Assembly (NCBI GenBank): GCA_001795615.1
Contig: MGKI01000002.1
Location: 2,760-66,759 of the forward strand
Direction: 5' to 3'
Source: Candidatus Yanofskybacteria bacterium RIFCSPLOWO2_01_FULL_42_49
GTDB taxonomy: Bacteria > Patescibacteriota > Minisyncoccia > 2-02-FULL-40-12 > GWA2-44-9
Length of the DNA stretch: 64,000 nt
In this document: positions 31,493 through 50,584 of the stretch, piece after piece
Numbering within the stretch: the first letter of the stretch is position 1
Layout: every line of letters starts with the position of its first letter
The notes under the pieces: generated by a model
Seen by the model: only the letters and a program-made list of their open reading frames with translations
Told to the model about the DNA's origin: nothing
Database searches by the model: none
Translations under genes and position numbers: made by a program

Positions 31493-31583
31493 TATTCGCG
31501 GAAGACCAAGGGATCAAGCCTCCTTCGCCAAGGCTACGGAGGGCCAATCAAGGATCAAGGGATCCAAGCGTCCAAGTACCTTG

Positions 31584-31706
31584 AAACTACCGGGAGGGGC
31601 AGACACCGAGATGCGAAGTCGCATCGTCGCGGGAAGCGTGGCCGACGCGGAGACCGTCCGAGTCGAAGCGGCCAACGTTGACGAAGTAGCCGCCGGAAGA
31701 CCGCAC
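31584..31706 (-). other. DGR variable region VR1
   Basis: 123 nt aligned to TR by hand; every substitution maps to an adenine of TR. Confidence 0.8.
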
Positions 31707-32414
31707 ACCGGACCAGTCCCACTTATCCTCTAAGAGAGTTTCTTTGTTTTCTCCGTAGTAGAGAAATGTATCATAGACAATTTCTACAGGTGTCCTGCGT
31801 TTAACCAATGCCGGGTCAATGTTATTTTGCTTAGCCCAGTTTTTTAGCACTTCTTCTTGTTGATCCCAATTCTTGCTCAACGAGTCCGGCAAGACGGATT
31901 TCATAACAAGACCCCAGCCAAGCTTGGGAGTTCCTTCAAGAGCAAACTTTTCCTTATCAAACCATCCATCACCCTTACTTCGATAAAACATTTTCTTCTT
32001 CTTTTCCTTGGGATCACCCAAAGTATCTCCACCTGAAAACTTTTCTCGTATTTGATCAATGGTTAGGGGCTTAGCTTCCTTGCCTTCACCGATGCTTGGC
32101 ACTCGAAGTACCAGCATCATTCCCAATTGTTTTGCCTGTTCCAACTCCTCTCTGGTAAATGGTATGTTTTCAATCTCTTGCAATTCATCCGGAGTAAGTT
32201 CGACACCGTAGGTTGTTTTAATTGCCTCTGGGCCAAGAAAGTCCTTACCAAATATCTCTCGAGCCTCATCAAATTCAATGTTTACTTCTTTAGCCTCAGG
32301 CACCAGACCTTCTTTCTTGGCAGTATCTAAAGCCTGCTCAACCTTTTTCTGAGTAGAGTTTTTGAACTTATCTGGCTCGTATTCTTCGTAGATTTTGTAG
32401 GCTTCAAATGGCAT
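31587..32414 (-). CDS. DGR target protein 1; the C-terminal CLec-like variable region ends ...HLGVCPSR.
   Basis: The C-terminal 40 codons are homologous to TR (35702-35824), and all differences sit at TR adenines. It is 80% identical to the paralog at 34491-35318. Confidence 0.8.
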   Translation of the reverse strand: MPFEAYKIYEEYEPDKFKNSTQKKVEQALDTAKKEGLVPEAKEVNIEFDEAREIFGKDFLGPEAIKTTYGVELTPDELQEIENIPFTREELEQAKQLGMMLVLRVPSIGEGKEAKPLTIDQIREKFSGGDTLGDPKEKKKKMFYRSKGDGWFDKEKFALEGTPKLGWGLVMKSVLPDSLSKNWDQQEEVLKNWAKQNNIDPALVKRRTPVEIVYDTFLYYGENKETLLEDKWDWSGVRSSGGYFVNVGRFDSDGLRVGHASRDDATSHLGVCPSR

Positions 32415-32415
32415 A

Positions 32416-34404
32416 TTATAGGTCTTGGGTATATTTTAGAATAACTTTTTGAACTGCATGAGGCAACGCTTTAATATCTGTTATTACTTCGGCATCCGGC
32501 TTGTAGGTTTCTCTAACGGCTTGACCTGATTCAGTCATGCCCAATCCTAAACAAATAACCCCCTTATTCCTTAACTGAAGTAAAACAGTTTGGACTTTTC
32601 CTGAATCTTGGCTTTCGCCATCAGAAAGTACAACAATAACTTTTCTTCTTAATTTTTCTCTTAACTCTTTTTCTTGTTCCGGAGTTATTGAATCAAGAAC
32701 TTCTTCAAGAGAAAGGTAATCTGGCGTACCGCCACCAGCTTTGTGCATTTTTTTCCAAATACCAATTCTATCTTTTTCTGACAAGTCAGGTGATAACGAT
32801 TTTAGTTCTACATCGCCAAAGTCACCAAAAGCTCTAGTTTCAGTTCTGACTTGAAGTCCCAACGAAACACCACTCTCAAATTCGGCTTCTTCTATTTCTT
32901 TTTGAAAATCAGCTAGAGATTCCAGGAATAGGAGTTTGCTCTTGCGGTCCATCTCAAGCTTACCGCCTTCATTCATAGAACCAGATAAATCATTAACTAA
33001 AGACATATCAAGCATGCCATAGCCCTCCTGCTCTCGTTTATGCCTCTCAATCTCTCTAAATGCCCTTGGTTGGCCTCCGGCTCGCGATTCAATAGAAGAA
33101 TCAACCAATGTGTCCTCGGCTAGTTCTTCGCCTTCTGTTTTGAGCTGAGGCGAAAATTGCCATCGTTCTTTTAATCGCCTGGCAATGATCTTCTTAAAAA
33201 CTTCCCTTAGCTCGGCTACCAGGGGAGCGATCTCTTCATACTCCTTGCGATAACCAAGAACATCCTCGGCACTGACTCCATGCTCACGAGCCCATTCCTC
33301 AAGAATATTTTGTTCAAGAGTTGGTTGTCCGCCTTTTTTAGCAACTATTTCTTCCATCAACTTCTTGATTTCCTTTTCTTCGGCATGCGTTATGGGTTCT
33401 GGATGACCGTCATGGTAGGTCTTATACTCTTTCTTAAATTTCTTTTCAGCCGCTTCTCTGGCGGCACGGTCACTGGATTTCTTATCTCCACCTTTACTAG
33501 GTTGTTCTTCTTTGCCTTTTCCTTCTTGGGGTGTTTCCTTTTTTCTTTGCCACCATTTTTTCTTATCCTGGCCTGAACCTTGGCCTTGTTGAGGTTTATC
33601 AGAAACTTGAGTGTCCGTGGGTGACCCTTCACCCTGATCCTTGCTTTTACCGCTTTTCTTTTCTTCTTCTAAATCTTTTTCATAGAGTTCTCGATAGATA
33701 GGTTCGACAATTGTTCGCATTATTTGAAAACGATCTTTGGGGTCAATGGTTGGTGTAGTAACCAGATCAAGAATATCTATTTTATCTGAACCAAAGCTTC
33801 TCAATTTATCCAAAGCGGCCTGGGCTTCTGATCCAAGCTGTACCGCTTCTTCTGGCACCATCATCTGGCGAATAAAACCGTAAGTAAACTGAACATGAGA
33901 GGATTTATCGGTATAGTCAGTCGGTGGGAACATCTTTTCTCGGTAGAGTTGTTCTCGAGTTTCTTCTAGGAAAGGAAGTTCAGCAACAATACGTCTGTTA
34001 CCCAAAACATCTTCAAAGATATTGTATAAAAGATGGAGATGACCTTTTGCGCTGTATCGTTTGGCTTCTTTTAAGACAAGTTCCGGATTACGCATAAGCT
34101 CGCCATAGTGAGCCATAAGTTCGTGGGTGGTGGCAAAGAGAGTTTCCTGGAGGCTATAGCCACGTTCTATGAAGAATTTTGGATCGTAAATTAACTTTCG
34201 ATTTTGAAAATCAAATGCCCAACCGCCGTTACCTCGTTCAAGGGTAATATCACCCCTCAACCCGTAAGCTCCTAGTATTTCAGTTTCCTTATTTAAAAAT
34301 TCCTCGACGGCTTGAGCATCAATTTCGCTTTCCTGTTTTGGAACCTCTGGTTTTGGTTCGTCTTGAGGAGTTTCTATTCGATTTATGGGAAATGATTCTG
34401 GCAT
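32416..34404 (-). CDS. Protein with an N-terminal putative HExxH metallopeptidase-like region and a C-terminal von Willebrand factor A (MIDAS) domain, encoded between the two DGR targets
   Basis: HELMAH motif; a long K/E/Q/G-rich disordered middle; VWA with DLSGSM (DxSxS), a T (GGTPDY) and a VIVVLSDGES motif. Confidence 0.65.
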   Translation of the reverse strand: MPESFPINRIETPQDEPKPEVPKQESEIDAQAVEEFLNKETEILGAYGLRGDITLERGNGGWAFDFQNRKLIYDPKFFIERGYSLQETLFATTHELMAHYGELMRNPELVLKEAKRYSAKGHLHLLYNIFEDVLGNRRIVAELPFLEETREQLYREKMFPPTDYTDKSSHVQFTYGFIRQMMVPEEAVQLGSEAQAALDKLRSFGSDKIDILDLVTTPTIDPKDRFQIMRTIVEPIYRELYEKDLEEEKKSGKSKDQGEGSPTDTQVSDKPQQGQGSGQDKKKWWQRKKETPQEGKGKEEQPSKGGDKKSSDRAAREAAEKKFKKEYKTYHDGHPEPITHAEEKEIKKLMEEIVAKKGGQPTLEQNILEEWAREHGVSAEDVLGYRKEYEEIAPLVAELREVFKKIIARRLKERWQFSPQLKTEGEELAEDTLVDSSIESRAGGQPRAFREIERHKREQEGYGMLDMSLVNDLSGSMNEGGKLEMDRKSKLLFLESLADFQKEIEEAEFESGVSLGLQVRTETRAFGDFGDVELKSLSPDLSEKDRIGIWKKMHKAGGGTPDYLSLEEVLDSITPEQEKELREKLRRKVIVVLSDGESQDSGKVQTVLLQLRNKGVICLGLGMTESGQAVRETYKPDAEVITDIKALPHAVQKVILKYTQDL

Positions 34405-34487
34405 TTAGATGTGTTTATATAAAATTTTTTCGAAAGCCCAAGGAGACCAATAAGAATCAAGGGGTCCGAGCGCCCAAGCACCCTACG

Positions 34488-34610
34488 AAACTACCGGGAG
34501 GGGCAGACACCGAGACCCGAACTCGCATGGCCGCGGGAAGCGCCGTCGACGCCGAGACCGCCCGAGCCGAAGCGGCCAACGCGGACGAAGTTGCCGTCGG
34601 AAGACTGCAC
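34488..34610 (-). other. DGR variable region VR2
   Basis: Aligned to rc(TR); about 16 substitutions, all at TR adenines. Confidence 0.8.
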
Positions 34611-35318
34611 CTCGGTCCAATCATATTTATCCTCCAGTAGTGATTCTTTGTTTGCTCCATAGTATATCAGGGTATCATATGCAATTTCCACGGGTGTTCT
34701 TCTCTTAACTAGGGTAGGGTCTATATTATTGTCCTTTGCCCATTTCTTTAGAACTTCTTCTTGTTGATCCCAGTTTTTGCTTAATGAATCCGGTAATACG
34801 GATTTCATGACTAGACCCCAGCCGAGCTTAGGAGTGTCCTGGGTCACAAATTTTTCATTGTCATACCAACTTTCGCCTTTTTTACCATAAAAGACTTTTT
34901 GTTTCTTTTTCTTGGGATCACCCAAGGAATCGCCCTTGGTAAATAGTTCTCTGGCAGAATCAATGGTTAGAGGCCGTTCTGTTTTGCCTTCGCCGAGTCT
35001 GGGTACTCTTAGAACCAACATCATACCAAGTTGTTTGGCTTGTTCAAGCTCCTCTCTGGTGAAAGGGATGTCTTCTACCTCCTTGAGTTCATCTGGCGTC
35101 AACTCTACACCGAAAGTAGTTTGAATTGTTTCTGGTCCTAAGAAATCTTTGCCGAATATTTCTCGAGCTTCTTCAAATTCAACATGGACCTCCTTTGCCT
35201 CAGGTACTAGCCCTTCTTTTTTAGCGGTATCTAAAGCTTGCTCAACTTTCTTTTGAGTAGTGGTTTTAAACTTATCCGGTTCGTATTCCTCGTAGATTTT
35301 GTAGGCTTCAAATGGCAT
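34491..35318 (-). CDS. DGR target protein 2, paralog of 31587-32414
   Basis: Same architecture; the C-terminal VR differs from TR only at A positions. Confidence 0.8.
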   Translation of the reverse strand: MPFEAYKIYEEYEPDKFKTTTQKKVEQALDTAKKEGLVPEAKEVHVEFEEAREIFGKDFLGPETIQTTFGVELTPDELKEVEDIPFTREELEQAKQLGMMLVLRVPRLGEGKTERPLTIDSARELFTKGDSLGDPKKKKQKVFYGKKGESWYDNEKFVTQDTPKLGWGLVMKSVLPDSLSKNWDQQEEVLKKWAKDNNIDPTLVKRRTPVEIAYDTLIYYGANKESLLEDKYDWTEVQSSDGNFVRVGRFGSGGLGVDGASRGHASSGLGVCPSR

Positions 35319-35701
35319 GGTTCGATCAACTCACCACAAGTGGTGTAGTCGGAACTTTATTACATAAATATACAGTCAAAAATAGAATTTTACCAGCCCT
35401 TTTATAGTTGGGTATTTTATGTAATAATATTATTGAGTTTTGTTAATAGAGATTAAGCTCGGCTCAGGCTAGTTTAATCTTACGAACCTCCTCTTTTTGA
35501 TATCCACCGGAGTTCTTGTGGCCTATGGCTATAAGGAGTGGCGTGGCCGGAAAGTAGTAAAAACTACGAAACTACGTGTTTTATTTCAGCGTAGATGTCC
35601 TGCGAAAATCGAAGGACTGCTACCAGGTAAAATTCAGGGGAGAATCTTTTGATAATCCCCGGTGGCTATGGAGCGCTCATGGAGGGAATAAAACATATCG
35701 G

Positions 35702-35824
35702 TGCAGTCTTCCGACGGCAACTTCGTCAACGTTGGCAACTTCGACTCGGACGGTCTCAACGTCAACAACGATTCCCGCGACAATGCGAATTCGAATCTCG
35801 GTGTCTGCCCCTCTCGGTAGTTTT
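35702..35824 (+). other. DGR template repeat (TR); non-coding and AAC-rich
   Basis: No start codon in frame. It encodes SSDGNFVNVGNFDSDGLNVNNDSRDNANSNLGVCPSR in the frame matching the VRs and ends with an IMH-like GC-rich tract that differs from the VRs by a T/C change. Confidence 0.85.
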
Positions 35825-35828
35825 GTCT

Positions 35829-35871
35829 AAGTAAGTAATAGGCCTTCTTTCGAAGGCCTATTACTTACTTA
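35829..35871. terminator. Strong hairpin directly downstream of TR and overlapping the avd stop codon
   Basis: taagtaagtaataggcctt-cttt-cgaaggcctattacttactta. Confidence 0.5.
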
Positions 35872-36243
35872 CTCGCGAGTGGATCGAATCCAACCGCCAA
35901 GCATTTTGCCGATTTCTTGAATGTGGTTTTGGCAAACTATATACCTTTTGTCGCTCAATACGCCGAGGTCGCTTGCCATGCGAATAAACACTTTAAGGAT
36001 ATCAAGCTTGTTGCTGACCGATTCTAGAATCGGCAGCTTGTGGCTCTTGCTTGTTTGAGCTGCAAGCATAATGCCCTCAAGAATCTTTAATATGTATTCT
36101 TCGCAACGCTGTCCGAGCGTGTAGCGGTCTTTCTTGGGAAAATCAAGCTCAAAGATATAAAATTCTTTTAGAAAATCATGAGTTTTCTTAAAGATAGGAA
36201 TATCCAGGCTAAATTTCCCGTCATAGTTATGAGAGTTTTCCAT
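35869..36243 (-). CDS. avd: DGR accessory variability determinant (Avd), four-helix-bundle family
   Basis: 124 aa; C-terminal IQEIGKMLGGWIRS matches the Avd family pattern (cf. bAvd ...LIAEVGRILGSWI); adjacent to the RT. Confidence 0.75.
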   Translation of the reverse strand: MENSHNYDGKFSLDIPIFKKTHDFLKEFYIFELDFPKKDRYTLGQRCEEYILKILEGIMLAAQTSKSHKLPILESVSNKLDILKVFIRMASDLGVLSDKRYIVCQNHIQEIGKMLGGWIRSTRE

Positions 36244-37281
36244 AATGTTTTTAATAAGATTATTAGTTTAGAGAATTTGGTAATCTCGTGGAGGGAATTT
36301 CGAATTGGCAAAAAGCATCGGAGAGATACGCTGATCTTTGAGCGTGACCTGGAAGATAATCTGTGGGGACTTCACCGAGTTCTTGTGGATAGAACATATA
36401 AGCATTCCGGATATTCCTCATTTTTCGTCCAAGACCCGAAAGTAAGACACATCCACAAAGCATTGGTTCGAGATCGTGTTTTGCATCATGCCATAGTGAA
36501 GCACCTTAATCCAATCTTTGAACCAACTTTTATTTATGACTCCTATTCCTGTCGGATCGACAAAGGAACCCACCGGGGAGTAGAAGCTTTTGCTGAACAT
36601 GCTCGGCAAGTCAGCAAGAATTGGACCATTCCATGCTGGGTGCTCAAATGCGACGTCAGAAAATTCTTTGCCAGCATTGACCACAAAGTTTTGCTAGACA
36701 TCGTATTCAAGCAGGTAACGGATCTGGATGCCCGATGGTTAATAAATGAAGTGATCTCAAGTTTCAAATCAGAATTTACAATTAACCCCGAGAAGCCTAA
36801 GGGATTGCCAATTGGAAATCTGACTTCGCAGCTTTTTGCCAATGTGTATCTCAATGAGCTCGACCAATTCATGAAGCATCAGTTGAAAGAAAAACATTAC
36901 ATTCGTTATGCAGATGATTTTGTGATACTACATCCTCAAAGAGACCATTGTTTAAATATCGTAAAGCCAATAAATGCCCTCCTTAAAGAAACTCTCAAGC
37001 TGGAACTCCATCCAAATAAAATTACGGTCAGAAAATTTAGCCAAGGAGTCGATTTCTTGGGTTATGTTTGTTTTCCACATTTTGTAATACCAAGAGTTAA
37101 AACCGAATGTAGGATTTTTAATAAAATTCATAGAAATATTTTGCTATTTAAGCATAATCAGCTCAGTCTTGAATCGCTAAACCAAAGTATCCATTCATAT
37201 TTCGGTATTCTTTCGCATAGCGATTCTTTCGAACTGCAACAAGGGCTTGAAAATCAAATATTTTTCTGGCTTACACAATAA
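36229..37281 (+). CDS. DGR reverse transcriptase
   Basis: RT motifs including YADDFVI. The DGR-specific motif-4 signature LPIGNLTSQLFANVYLNELD has SQ in place of the QG of other RTs. N-terminal ENLVISWREF...RVLHHAIVKHLNPIFEPTFIYDSYSCRIDKGTH. Confidence 0.9.
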   Translation: MRVFHNVFNKIISLENLVISWREFRIGKKHRRDTLIFERDLEDNLWGLHRVLVDRTYKHSGYSSFFVQDPKVRHIHKALVRDRVLHHAIVKHLNPIFEPTFIYDSYSCRIDKGTHRGVEAFAEHARQVSKNWTIPCWVLKCDVRKFFASIDHKVLLDIVFKQVTDLDARWLINEVISSFKSEFTINPEKPKGLPIGNLTSQLFANVYLNELDQFMKHQLKEKHYIRYADDFVILHPQRDHCLNIVKPINALLKETLKLELHPNKITVRKFSQGVDFLGYVCFPHFVIPRVKTECRIFNKIHRNILLFKHNQLSLESLNQSIHSYFGILSHSDSFELQQGLENQIFFWLTQ

Positions 37282-38189: not shown

Positions 38190-38555
38190 TTAGCTTCTAG
38201 GTTTTAGGTTGTCAATCAAAGAATTCAACATTTTCATAACTTCCATTAGCAGTTGATCTGCCTTATTATAGTTTAGACTTTTTGTTTTAGCCAACCTTTT
38301 AGCTATTTCTATCTGTGTTTCTAATTCTGCACCCGAACCATATGCATTTAGTAAAAAATGCCTATAGTCTTTTCTCGTGCCACGCAATCGTCCTTCTGCG
38401 ATATTAGACGGTATTGAGATGGATGCTCTTCTCATCTGAGAAGTTAACCCATAATTTTCTTCTTTGGGAAAATCTTCAGTTAGAAGATAAACCTCCGTTA
38501 CAAGATTCATGGCTTTTTGCCAAACTATTAAATCCTTATATCCATTTAGAACCAT
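38190..38555 (-). CDS. Four-helix-bundle protein of the 23S rRNA intervening-sequence / Avd-like family
   Basis: DLIVWQKAMNLVTEVY...FPKEENYGLTSQMRRASISIPSNIAEG...FLLNAYGSGAELETQIEIA is the canonical family motif. Confidence 0.8.
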   Translation of the reverse strand: MVLNGYKDLIVWQKAMNLVTEVYLLTEDFPKEENYGLTSQMRRASISIPSNIAEGRLRGTRKDYRHFLLNAYGSGAELETQIEIAKRLAKTKSLNYNKADQLLMEVMKMLNSLIDNLKPRS

Positions 38556-50394: not shown

Positions 50395-50505
50395 TGGTGG
50401 GTGCGGTAGGAATCGGACCTACGACCTTCCACTTATCAGACGGATGCTCTACCAAGCCGACGTTACAGTCGGCTCCCCGACCGAAGCGTCGGGGCTGAAC
50501 TACGT
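50395..50505 (-). pseudogene. 3' two-thirds of a tRNA-Ile(GAT)-like gene (D-arm with a 39-nt twin-hairpin insertion, anticodon arm, T-arm, acceptor 3' strand, CCA) lacking its 5' acceptor strand
   Basis: rc sequence gtagttcag[cccc...gtcggc]ttggtagagcatccgtctgataagtggaaggtcgtaggtccgattcctaccgcacccacca. The matching 5' acceptor gggtacg lies about 430 bp away at 50936-50942. Confidence 0.5.
50443..50505. repeat. 63-bp direct repeat, copy 1, flanking the GIY-YIG/tRNA-Ile cassette
   Basis: Identical to 50872-50934 except for one mismatch. Confidence 0.8.
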
Positions 50506-50512
50506 TATTTTG

Positions 50513-50584
50513 TGGGCGTGCTAGGAATCGGACCTAGGACCTCCTTTTTATCAGAAAGGCGTTCTACCACTGAACTACACGCCC
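50513..50584 (-). tRNA. tRNA-Ile (anticodon GAT); CCA not encoded; T-loop TCCGATT
   Basis: Hand fold: acceptor GGGCGTG/CACGCCC, D-stem GTTC/GAAC, anticodon stem CCTTT/AAAGG with loop CT-GAT-AA, T-arm CTAGG-TCCGATT-CCTAG. Confidence 0.75.

Follow-up and report, generated by a model that had tools for sequence, protein, structure and literature searches.

The diversity-generating retroelements (DGRs) of CPR bacteria were reportedly the subject of a study by Paul et al. in 2017. To our knowledge, what priming and processivity require of the RNA has been worked out for the Bordetella phage element alone, in which the essential RNA lies downstream of the template repeat (TR). The order of that element, carried by phage BPP-1, is mtd-avd-TR-brt, and a bRT-Avd-RNA structure is available (8ub7); an Avd-binding stem-loop has been described just downstream of TR (bioRxiv 10.1101/2023.10.23.563531). 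For CPR bacteria, the architecture TR-(avd)-RT, termed B3, has been published as typical (PMC5758913), and targets without transmembrane or other domains have already been reported (PMC8144416). DGRs have, furthermore, been linked to the MoxR-vWA "ternary" conflict systems of cyanobacteria and multicellular proteobacteria (Kaur et al. 2020, PMC7159879; Doré et al. 2024, PMC10907252).

The DNA analyzed here, a window of 64,000 nucleotides (64 kb), is part of a genome of Candidatus Yanofskybacteria (Patescibacteria/CPR) and carries a DGR in a chromosomal location, flanked by ybeY-ftsA-ftsZ and yqeY-rpsU-hisS. The TR (35701 to 35823, plus strand) is followed by an inverted avd gene (35869 to 36243, minus strand) and by the reverse transcriptase (RT) gene (36229 to 37281, plus strand), which is the B3 order, TR-(avd)-RT, as defined by Wu et al. 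2018 (PMC5758913). The locus is a genuine DGR with a complete core, of the B3 kind typical of CPR bacteria; such elements are known to be widespread among ultra-small bacteria of groundwater. Since both this layout and signal-less CPR targets have already been published, the core finding is one more DGR of a known type, and it changes little, because CPR bacteria are known to harbour DGRs in abundance. The best explanation overall, which we hold with high confidence, is a chromosomal B3 DGR that diversifies two CLec/FGE targets by the RNA mechanism proposed below.

Template repeat, variable regions and retroelement proteins

A gap-free register aligns TR 35701 to 35823 (plus) with VR1 at 31706 to 31584 (minus) and with VR2 at 34610 to 34488 (minus), the two variable regions corresponding to the last 40 codons and the stop of the target genes T1 and T2, respectively; the homology between TR and VR2 extends to 35826. 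The initial annotation had placed both VRs exactly, whereas its TR, at 35702 to 35824, lay 1 nt too high. When mismatches were tabulated by TR base over positions 35701 to 35813, a segment of 24 adenines and 89 other bases, all 14 mismatches of VR1 (Fisher p = 7e-12) and all 17 of VR2 (p = 5e-15) fell at TR adenines, and 0 of the 89 non-A positions were changed in either comparison. The adenine-only pattern proposed at the outset is thereby borne out and, since every mismatch between TR and a VR is at a TR adenine, any difference between VR1 and VR2 must likewise lie at such a position, as had also been claimed. All 24 adenines occupy codon position 1 (nine cases) or 2 (15 cases), and the TR codons include six AAC and three AAT. 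The translation, VQSSDGNFVNVGNFDSDGLNVNNDSRDNANSNLGVCPSR*, agrees with the reading given previously.

The 3' end of TR (35797 to 35826, plus strand) is IMH*-like, consisting of a GC-rich block followed by CTCGGTAGTTTTGT, and it also holds the 3' strand (35817 to 35826) of the long-range duplex discussed below. The block GGTGTCTGCCCCTCYCGGTAG is present in exactly three copies in the 64-kb window, against 0.01 expected, and a search of the whole window for further VRs or IMH copies returned none beyond these three. At 35814 and 35824 the TR has T and both VRs have C, these being the sole differences there, and no A-type change between TR and either VR lies 3' of 35795. The shared GC-rich block with its T/C differences, which had already been interpreted as IMH versus IMH*, has the features of a candidate IMH/IMH* pair that would bound mutagenesis.

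Each VR is followed by a conserved element of about 65 nt, which could be aligned after every VR in four loci. After VR1 (31515 to 31583, minus strand) it contains CTTGG/CTTGA repeats and its 3' part has diverged; after VR2 (34420 to 34487, minus strand) its distal end matches the junction between the second target (Tb) and the VWA gene of sister loci. No hairpin or cruciform like that of BPP-1 was found after the VRs (DNA fold z = +0.25 and, for the VR2 element, +1.5), and the RNAalifold consensus structure of the element contained 0 pairs.

The RT gene encodes a protein of 350 aa, a length common to its orthologues, with a match to RVT_1 (1e-23). The best PDB match is the Bordetella phage bRT (8ub7), aligned essentially in full (E 9e-38, residues 5 to 343), and the next ones, at about 4e-17, are non-DGR RTs labelled as retron-type or group II intron. 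The protein carries YADD, LPIGNLTSQ and the equivalents of bRT D138, R74 and I181, and the catalytic Asp residues are kept. Judged by its best PDB match and its motifs, the RT belongs to the DGR clade, in agreement with the type first assigned from YADD and IGNLTSQ. The 124-aa product of the gene antisense to TR and RT, whose start overlaps the RT start by 15 nt, had been described only as Avd-like; HMM searches identified it as Avd (Pfam bAvd, 2e-19; PF22296, 70.3 bits versus a cutoff of 40; NCBIfam NF033474 DivGenRetAVD, 92.8 bits versus an equivalog cutoff of 80).

Target proteins and their cassette

The targets T1 (31587 to 32414, minus strand) and T2 (34491 to 35318, minus strand; GenBank OGN23509.1) are paralogues of 275 aa each. 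Among the targets of sister loci, the third (Tc) is orthologous to T1, which has 88 to 97% identity to Tc of loci L003 and L007 outside the VR, and the first (Ta) is orthologous to T2. T2 has the CLec/FGE fold, with the VR in its C-terminal part; T1 gave no match in a Pfam search, and we infer the same fold for it from its paralogue. The C-type-lectin-fold VR anticipated for these proteins is in line with this result. Both sequences end in LGVCPSR, as originally noted, and have acidic N termini, and the conserved 45-residue N-terminal segment of the targets is predicted to be disordered. A search for hydrophobic segments in T1 and T2 found none (maximum 19-residue Kyte-Doolittle mean 0.44 to 0.72), consistent with the proposed lack of a signal peptide. 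Most likely, T1 and T2 bind ligands as modules in the cytoplasm and act together with the VWA protein whose gene lies between theirs.

This 662-aa protein (32416 to 34404, minus strand) comprises an uncharacterised N-terminal domain with a conserved THELMAH motif, a Lys/Glu-rich linker and a C-terminal VWA domain, the latter a weak match to Pfam PF00092 at residues 562 to 629 (25.9 bits versus a cutoff of 23.8). Its orthologues, at 84 to 97% identity, occupy the same position in the sister cassettes. No Pfam match was obtained for the N-terminal 268 residues, and no PDB relative was found by sequence for the protein. A zincin HExxH motif was considered and rejected: the conserved motif is HELMAH (HExxxH), and the peptidase claim was dropped for this reason. 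None of the cassette proteins matched a peptidase, TIR, cyclase or VMAP-like domain in searches with Pfam, NCBIfam and PADLOC. In particular, PADLOC returned no defence-system match for the targets, Avd and the VWA protein, and only weak generic AAA matches for the ATPase of the sister loci.

Orthologous cassettes occur in at least seven species-level genomes, each with one TR, two or three VRs and A-specific mismatches. In the sister genomes, three targets are interleaved with the VWA protein and a midasin/MoxR-like AAA+ ATPase; this AAA_5 ATPase, midasin/NorQ-like, is encoded in every sister cassette, and there the targets would work with it as well. A tblastn search of the 64-kb window with the sister-locus protein gave no match. 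On comparison of these gene orders, the lineage of the window has lost the ATPase and the middle target, probably by recombination between the near-identical 3' ends of target genes. It follows that the element, initially called complete, is so with regard to its retroelement core, whereas relative to the sister loci an AAA+ ATPase gene and a third target are gone.

Activity and integrity of the locus

VR1 and VR2 show 0 differences in all available assemblies of the window lineage, including contigs with differing flanks, and for this reason ongoing activity in the lineage is unproven. The assemblies with invariant VRs may sample one population or be chimeric. Three near-identical contigs (L009, L113 and L114) are mosaics, in which 3' parts that are 100% identical are joined to diverged 5' parts, and as such they say little about activity. 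Sister lineages, in contrast, are hypervariable: among their proteins that are at least 90% identical, the VR tail differs at 27 to 30% of positions per pair and the body at 3 to 6%.

It is possible to read this invariance as the mark of a DGR whose parts are intact but in which homing has ceased, the VRs being fixed alleles, perhaps since the loss of the ATPase and of a third target. We regard this as rather unlikely, even though, besides seven assemblies without VR differences, VR2 is identical in four cluster members whose bodies differ by 2.6% (the VRs of sister clusters differ by 27 to 30%). The body differences of the cluster are concentrated in the mosaic 5' segments, so a single clonal 3' haplotype may be common to all the assemblies, several of which may have been assembled anew from the same Rifle samples. 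That the cassette is a deletion derivative also speaks for cessation, as does decay in the related lineage of L007, L012 and L017, in which the avd call measures only 69 aa and three to four non-A differences between TR and VR are common to all three VRs; the window, by contrast, has an intact RT, Avd and TR as well as two intact target ORFs. Moreover, no non-A mismatch is present in 2 x 113 nt, which argues that the last homing event was recent.

The deletion is counted as real because the order T-VWA-T-ybeY recurs in several assemblies obtained with different pipelines, because T2 corresponds to Ta and T1 to Tc, and because the sequence 3' of T2 matches the region after Tb in the sister loci. 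That the repeated VR ends were instead merged during assembly, the true genome keeping a full T-AAA-T-VWA-T cassette, seems very improbable to us: the junction does fall in sequence repeated after each target, and in this lineage the target genes are frequent sites of contig breaks or mosaic joins, but an identical junction is present in L110, L112, L113 and L009, from different pipelines and samples, and the exact repeats at paralogous ends in sister loci measure about 35 to 40 nt, well under the k of 141 suggested by "k141" contig names.

RNA elements and proposed mechanism

Directly 5' of TR, a structured RNA domain of about 265 nt (35433 to 35700, plus strand) with eight local helices was recognized by its strong covariation. 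In a set of 17 distinct sequences, the 70 pairs that make up these helices and the long-range duplex were paired in 98.9% of cells, versus 43 to 51% with the partners slid, and 24 of the 70 showed compensatory changes, versus 3 to 6 with the partners slid. Invariant G-U pairs assign the domain to the plus strand. A covariance model of the domain found it upstream of TR in six distant CPR DGR loci, whose TR/VR pairs likewise differ at A only; the domain thus recurs in DGRs whose RTs are only 45 to 49% identical. For the domain and the TR region, Rfam gave no family at the gathering threshold or at E <= 1, and a mir-26 match on the hairpin described below was spurious. We found no description of the 5' domain or of the post-VR element in the searchable literature on related DGRs. 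A conserved folded RNA directly upstream of TR is a less expected addition to an otherwise familiar element.

A promoter-like site (35401 to 35428, plus strand; TTTATA, 16 nt, TG-AATAAT), picked out by a consensus scan, ends 5 nt ahead of the first conserved helix of the domain, and this candidate promoter would set the transcript start near 35435. Within the domain, the 5' strand of the long-range duplex, ACGAAACUAC (35566 to 35575, plus strand), forms ten contiguous pairs with 35817 to 35826 in the window. This 10-bp duplex (helix 6) is 96.6% paired, with one clearly covarying pair only (pair 150-420 = CG:8, UA:5, UG:3). In the six distant loci, complementary segments of 7 to 10 nt were seen at inconsistent positions, for which reason they were not counted as support for the duplex. 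Directly after TR, a perfect hairpin of 19 bp with a 4-nt loop (35829 to 35870, plus strand; -23.6 kcal/mol, z = -9.1) abuts the avd stop codon and is kept across loci via compensatory changes (alignment columns 533 to 566); its position fits that of the Avd-binding stem-loop of bioRxiv 10.1101/2023.10.23.563531.

That two paralogues and a pseudogene-like third copy diverged via ordinary mutation or gene conversion is already effectively ruled out, having nothing in its favour except the existence of three similar copies, while the mismatches fall exclusively at adenines of one copy (p below 1e-11), this copy (TR) is non-coding, embedded in structured RNA and adjacent to an Avd gene and a DGR-clade RT, and the A-only pattern is seen at every orthologous and distant locus examined.

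For the chromosomal B3 DGR that we favour, analogy with the Bordetella phage DGR suggests a transcript start, a priming site and a role for the 5' RNA domain. A plus-strand RNA from near 35435 would hold the folded 5' domain of about 265 nt, the TR and the 3' hairpin, and an RT-Avd complex would bind this TR-containing RNA. cDNA synthesis would begin at the 3' end of TR, the site of the 10-bp duplex (35566 to 35575 with 35817 to 35826), and random nucleotides would go in opposite the 24 template adenines. One of the two VRs would then be replaced by the cDNA; as recipients, the VRs would be marked by the C-containing IMH and, probably, by the element of about 65 nt after each stop codon. Such homing would recode 15 codons, which corresponds to about 1e14 variants of each target protein.

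It is possible to hypothesize, although we offer this only tentatively and with less than even confidence, that CPR B3 DGRs use a permuted RNA, in which the large protein-binding scaffold is the covarying domain of about 265 nt 5' of TR, and not a 3' spacer as in Bordetella; the scaffold would likewise form the duplex at the 3' end of TR, the starting point of the cDNA, and only a single hairpin would lie 3' of TR; recipients would be marked by the unstructured element of about 65 nt, and not by a cruciform. As a separate part of the same tentative reading, the stand-alone lectin-fold proteins would be interchangeable ligand-sensing adaptors of a split cytoplasmic midasin-like AAA+/VWA machine that tolerates loss of the ATPase. 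The covarying domain upstream of TR offers a testable alternative RNA layout for the large CPR branch of DGRs. The steady embedding of the target genes between a midasin/MoxR-like ATPase and a VWA protein provides a concrete hypothesis on CPR variable proteins, for whose function the ATPase-less deletion variant is a natural comparison.

Comparison with known systems

The locus resembles the CPR B3 DGRs (PMC5758913; DGR clade 2, Roux et al. 2021, PMC8144416) in its host phylum and chromosomal location, in the avd gene inverted between TR and RT, and in its short targets without recognisable transmembrane or other domain and with a C-terminal VR. However, CPR DGRs are reported to tend to a single target, whereas the family of the window has two or three paralogous targets, and these, unlike those of reported CPR DGRs, are interleaved with a VWA gene and, in the sisters, with an AAA+ gene. 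TvpA of Treponema denticola and other FGE-type CLec variable proteins share 16% identity or less with the targets of the window, which, different from TvpA-type proteins, have no Pfam FGE-sulfatase match, lipoprotein signal or secretion signal and carry the conserved 45-residue N-terminal segment predicted to be disordered.

With the MoxR-vWA conflict systems the sister loci share the combination, in one operon, of a MoxR/midasin-class AAA_5 ATPase, a VWA protein and DGR-diversified CLec domains. However, the CLec domains of this family stand alone and are not fused to the vWA protein, the RT is of the CPR lineage, and the ATPase is missing from the window itself. In terms of the MoxR-vWA (VMAP) components, the window has the vWA protein, by a weak match, and neither a MoxR-class ATPase nor a VMAP or effector was found in it.

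Compared with the phage-borne BPP-1 element, the DGR of the window is cellular, its avd is antisense and downstream of TR, and its targets are most likely cytoplasmic instead of tail fibres. A large structured RNA lies upstream of TR, whereas BPP-1 uses the downstream spacer; an upstream strand takes part in the duplex at the 3' end of TR, and the VRs are not followed by a GC-rich hairpin. Nevertheless, the two elements have in common an RT that aligns end to end, with the catalytic and adenine-mutagenesis residues kept, as well as Avd, adenine-specific transfer from TR to VR, a GC-rich IMH/IMH* pair and a stem-loop just after TR.

Template and variable repeats

The locus is almost certainly a bona fide diversity-generating retroelement (DGR), and its overall mechanism is very probably as described here. 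MAFFT and an exact-anchor register bring the template repeat (TR) and the variable regions (VRs) of the paralogous 275-aa target genes T1 (31587-32414, minus strand) and T2 (34491-35318, minus strand) into a gap-free register, in which TR 35701-35823 (plus) corresponds to VR1 31706-31584 (minus) and VR2 34610-34488 (minus); the three copies of the initial annotation are therefore real, with the TR having been placed 1 nt too high. TR 35701-35813 contains 24 adenines plus 89 non-A bases; 14 mismatches separate it from VR1 and 17 from VR2, and the claim that mismatches fall on TR adenines alone was borne out for every one of them (Fisher p = 7e-12 and 5e-15). In particular, 21 of the 24 adenines are altered in at least one VR, and all adenines of the TR occupy codon position 1 or 2, including six AAC and three AAT codons from which substitution cannot reach a stop codon; about 1e14 proteins per target are reachable. 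A search of the 64 kb finds the 3' block GGTGTCTGCCCCTCYCGGTAG at precisely three sites, versus 0.01 expected. The sole non-A differences, at 35814 and 35824, are T in the TR versus C in both VRs, as expected for the IMH*/IMH distinction already recognized at the outset.

Reverse transcriptase and Avd

The reverse transcriptase (RT; 36229-37281) matches RVT_1, and its assignment to the DGR type was upheld by the alignment of residues 5 to 343 with the Bordetella phage DGR RT (structure 8ub7, E 9e-38), the next-best structures, labelled as retron-type and group II intron RTs, lying at about 4e-17. Furthermore, it conserves the catalytic Asp in LKCDVRKFF, the YADD and LPIGNLTSQ motifs, and residues equivalent to bRT R74 and I181, whose functional roles are described elsewhere (bioRxiv 10.1101/2023.10.23.563531). 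Its relatives are overwhelmingly Patescibacteria and DPANN. The ORF at 35869-36243 (minus), previously described as Avd-like, exceeds the curated cutoffs of both PF22296 and NF033474 ("diversity-generating retroelement protein Avd"); its start and that of the RT gene, which lie on opposite strands, overlap by 15 nt, as also in orthologous loci.

A second Avd-like four-helix-bundle gene (38190-38555, minus), about 0.9 kb past the RT and adjoining rpsU, matches PF05635 23S_rRNA_IVP (1e-37) and the four-helix-bundle family TIGR02436, falls under the Avd cutoffs (bAvd, 29 bits; NF033474, 25 bits), and is probably unrelated to the DGR. Avd itself is thought to derive from the same family.

RNA elements flanking the repeats

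The RNA elements are the least expected part of the locus: the stretch of 380 nt that separates the T2 start from the TR is no bland spacer but holds a 5' RNA domain. RNAalifold was run on 17 distinct sequences, taken from genome loci and a metagenome pattern scan; it predicted eight local helices between about 35435 and the TR and, in addition, a long-range one reaching the TR 3' end. In this structure 98.9% of cells are paired, versus 43 to 51% with partners slid by 1 to 3 columns, 24 pairs show compensatory changes (3 to 6 in slid controls), and the covariation score is 0.366 (about 0.09 in slid controls). Since several invariant pairs are G-U, we assigned the RNA to the TR/RT strand. Its first helix is preceded, at a distance of 5 nt, by a promoter-like extended -10. 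The domain has no match in Rfam. A covariance model built from its first 120 nt detected it in six DGR loci of greater divergence (RT 45 to 49% identical), equally placed upstream of a TR and with A-only VR mismatches; once they are included, covariation extends to 28 of 36 pairs, in an alignment fitted to the model.

An uninterrupted 10-bp duplex is possible in the window between ACGAAACUAC (35566-35575) and GUAGUUUUGU (35817-35826), precisely where TR-VR homology ends on the 3' side. This pairing is modestly supported across the clade, one pair covarying clearly, and it is not clear in the six distant loci. It is possible that the domain acts at the priming site. On one metagenomic contig (L092:448-898), the domain breaks off after its first ~190 nt and unrelated sequence follows; this copy is truncated or rearranged.

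Directly 3' of the TR lies a 19-bp perfect tetraloop hairpin (z = -9.1), kept through compensatory changes. Handa et al. reported an "Avd-binding stem-loop just downstream of TR" in many DGRs, including those of CPR bacteria, in a survey covering only 40 nt upstream of the TR (bioRxiv 10.1101/2023.10.23.563531), and the hairpin fits that description. A conserved, CTTGG/CTTGA-rich element of ~65 nt terminating in TTCGAAAAATTTTT lies 3' of every VR; it is absent after the TR and yielded no consensus structure. In the sister-lineage locus L007 (12269-12375), a GC-rich hairpin (CCCGCC-AGA-GGCGGG) resembling the Bordetella-type post-VR hairpin is inserted directly 3' of the IMH of the third target, before the usual element, and occurs in no other copy.

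Target proteins and VWA protein

T2 is identical to OGN23509.1 (GenBank) of a Candidatus Yanofskybacteria MAG, and Rifle groundwater scaffolds are 99.9 to 100% identical to the window. In keeping with the earlier reading that the targets lack a signal peptide, neither T1 nor T2 shows a signal-like N terminus or a hydrophobic stretch, and their CLec fold is well supported. Residues 1 to 45 of both (MPFEAYKIYEEYEPDKFK...), which in all paralogues rank among the family's most conserved parts, are predicted to be disordered (pLDDT <50) and are a candidate docking peptide for a VWA or AAA+ partner. In the VWA protein encoded between the targets (32416-34404, minus), a long Lys/Glu/Gln-rich low-complexity linker (residues ~240 to 330) separates the VWA domain from an N-terminal domain with a conserved THELMAH, for which no family was detected.

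Cassette organization and its reduction

In at least seven species-level genomes, the orthologous cassette reads RT, Avd, TR, target, AAA_5 ATPase, target, VWA protein, target, with one TR and three VRs whose mismatches are A-specific; this ATPase resembles midasin (E 3e-34) and NorQ/MoxR. T2 is orthologous to the first sister target (88 to 91%), T1 to the third (88 to 97%), and the sequence 3' of T2 corresponds to the junction found downstream of the middle target. It follows that the ATPase and middle target were deleted, most simply by recombination between the targets' near-identical 3' ends; no AAA_5 homologue occurs anywhere in the 64-kb window. That the two-target layout is instead an assembly collapse is unlikely, since several assemblies from different pipelines carry the same junction.

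The flanks of the sister cassettes in L001 and L003 to L005 (large serine recombinase, N6/N4 DNA methyltransferases, SNase-like nuclease, SNF2 helicase) look like a mobile or defence island; the window cassette has housekeeping surroundings, with ybeY, ftsA and ftsZ to its one side and yqeY, rpsU, HIT and hisS to its other. A partial tRNA-like match at 50406-50458 (minus; Rfam tRNA, 30.9 bits, model positions 9 to 63) lies ~55 nt from tRNA-Ile (50512-50584), with no ARAGORN call.

Diversification and activity

At the family level the diversification signature is clear: pairs within four clusters of sister proteins (identity of 90% or more) differ by 27 to 30% in the last 42 residues versus 3 to 6% elsewhere, and the variable columns are AAC/AAT/GAC codons. 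Neither VR varies among any of the assemblies of the window's lineage; this is weak evidence of inactivity, because several contigs are mosaics with a common 100%-identical 3' segment and some may derive from the same samples assembled anew. Nonetheless, the VR invariance named at the outset as a ground for refutation is not dispelled for this lineage. The zero non-A TR/VR differences within TR 35701-35813 and the intact ORFs argue for recent last homing events, and on balance we favor a DGR still active in this lineage.

Against window positions 31700-36550, the homologous contigs L009, L113, and L114 switch abruptly between 100% and 80 to 90% identity in the target, RT, and avd genes, through either strain/paralogue recombination or chimeric assembly. 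The sister Yanofskybacteria lineage (L007, L012, L017) looks as if it is decaying; the L007 TR has 3 or 4 non-adenine differences common to all three VRs, and avd is called at just 69 aa in L007 and L008.

Comparison with known systems

The TR-(avd)-RT layout is architecture B3, "90% of the CPR set" (Wu et al. 2018, PMC5758913), and CPR targets are typically without transmembrane or other domains (Roux et al. 2021, PMC8144416); thus, the window DGR is typical of CPR bacteria, and the core finding adds to those already known. MoxR-vWA systems with DGR-diversified CLec domains have been described in cyanobacteria and multicellular proteobacteria (PMC7159879, PMC10907252). However, those systems carry CLec as a fusion to the vWA protein and encode recognizable effectors, whereas the window locus has neither, and PADLOC gave no hits, so that we kept it out of that family. 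Worth carrying forward are the conserved 5' RNA domain, the post-VR element, and the AAA+/VWA context with its natural ATPase-less variant.
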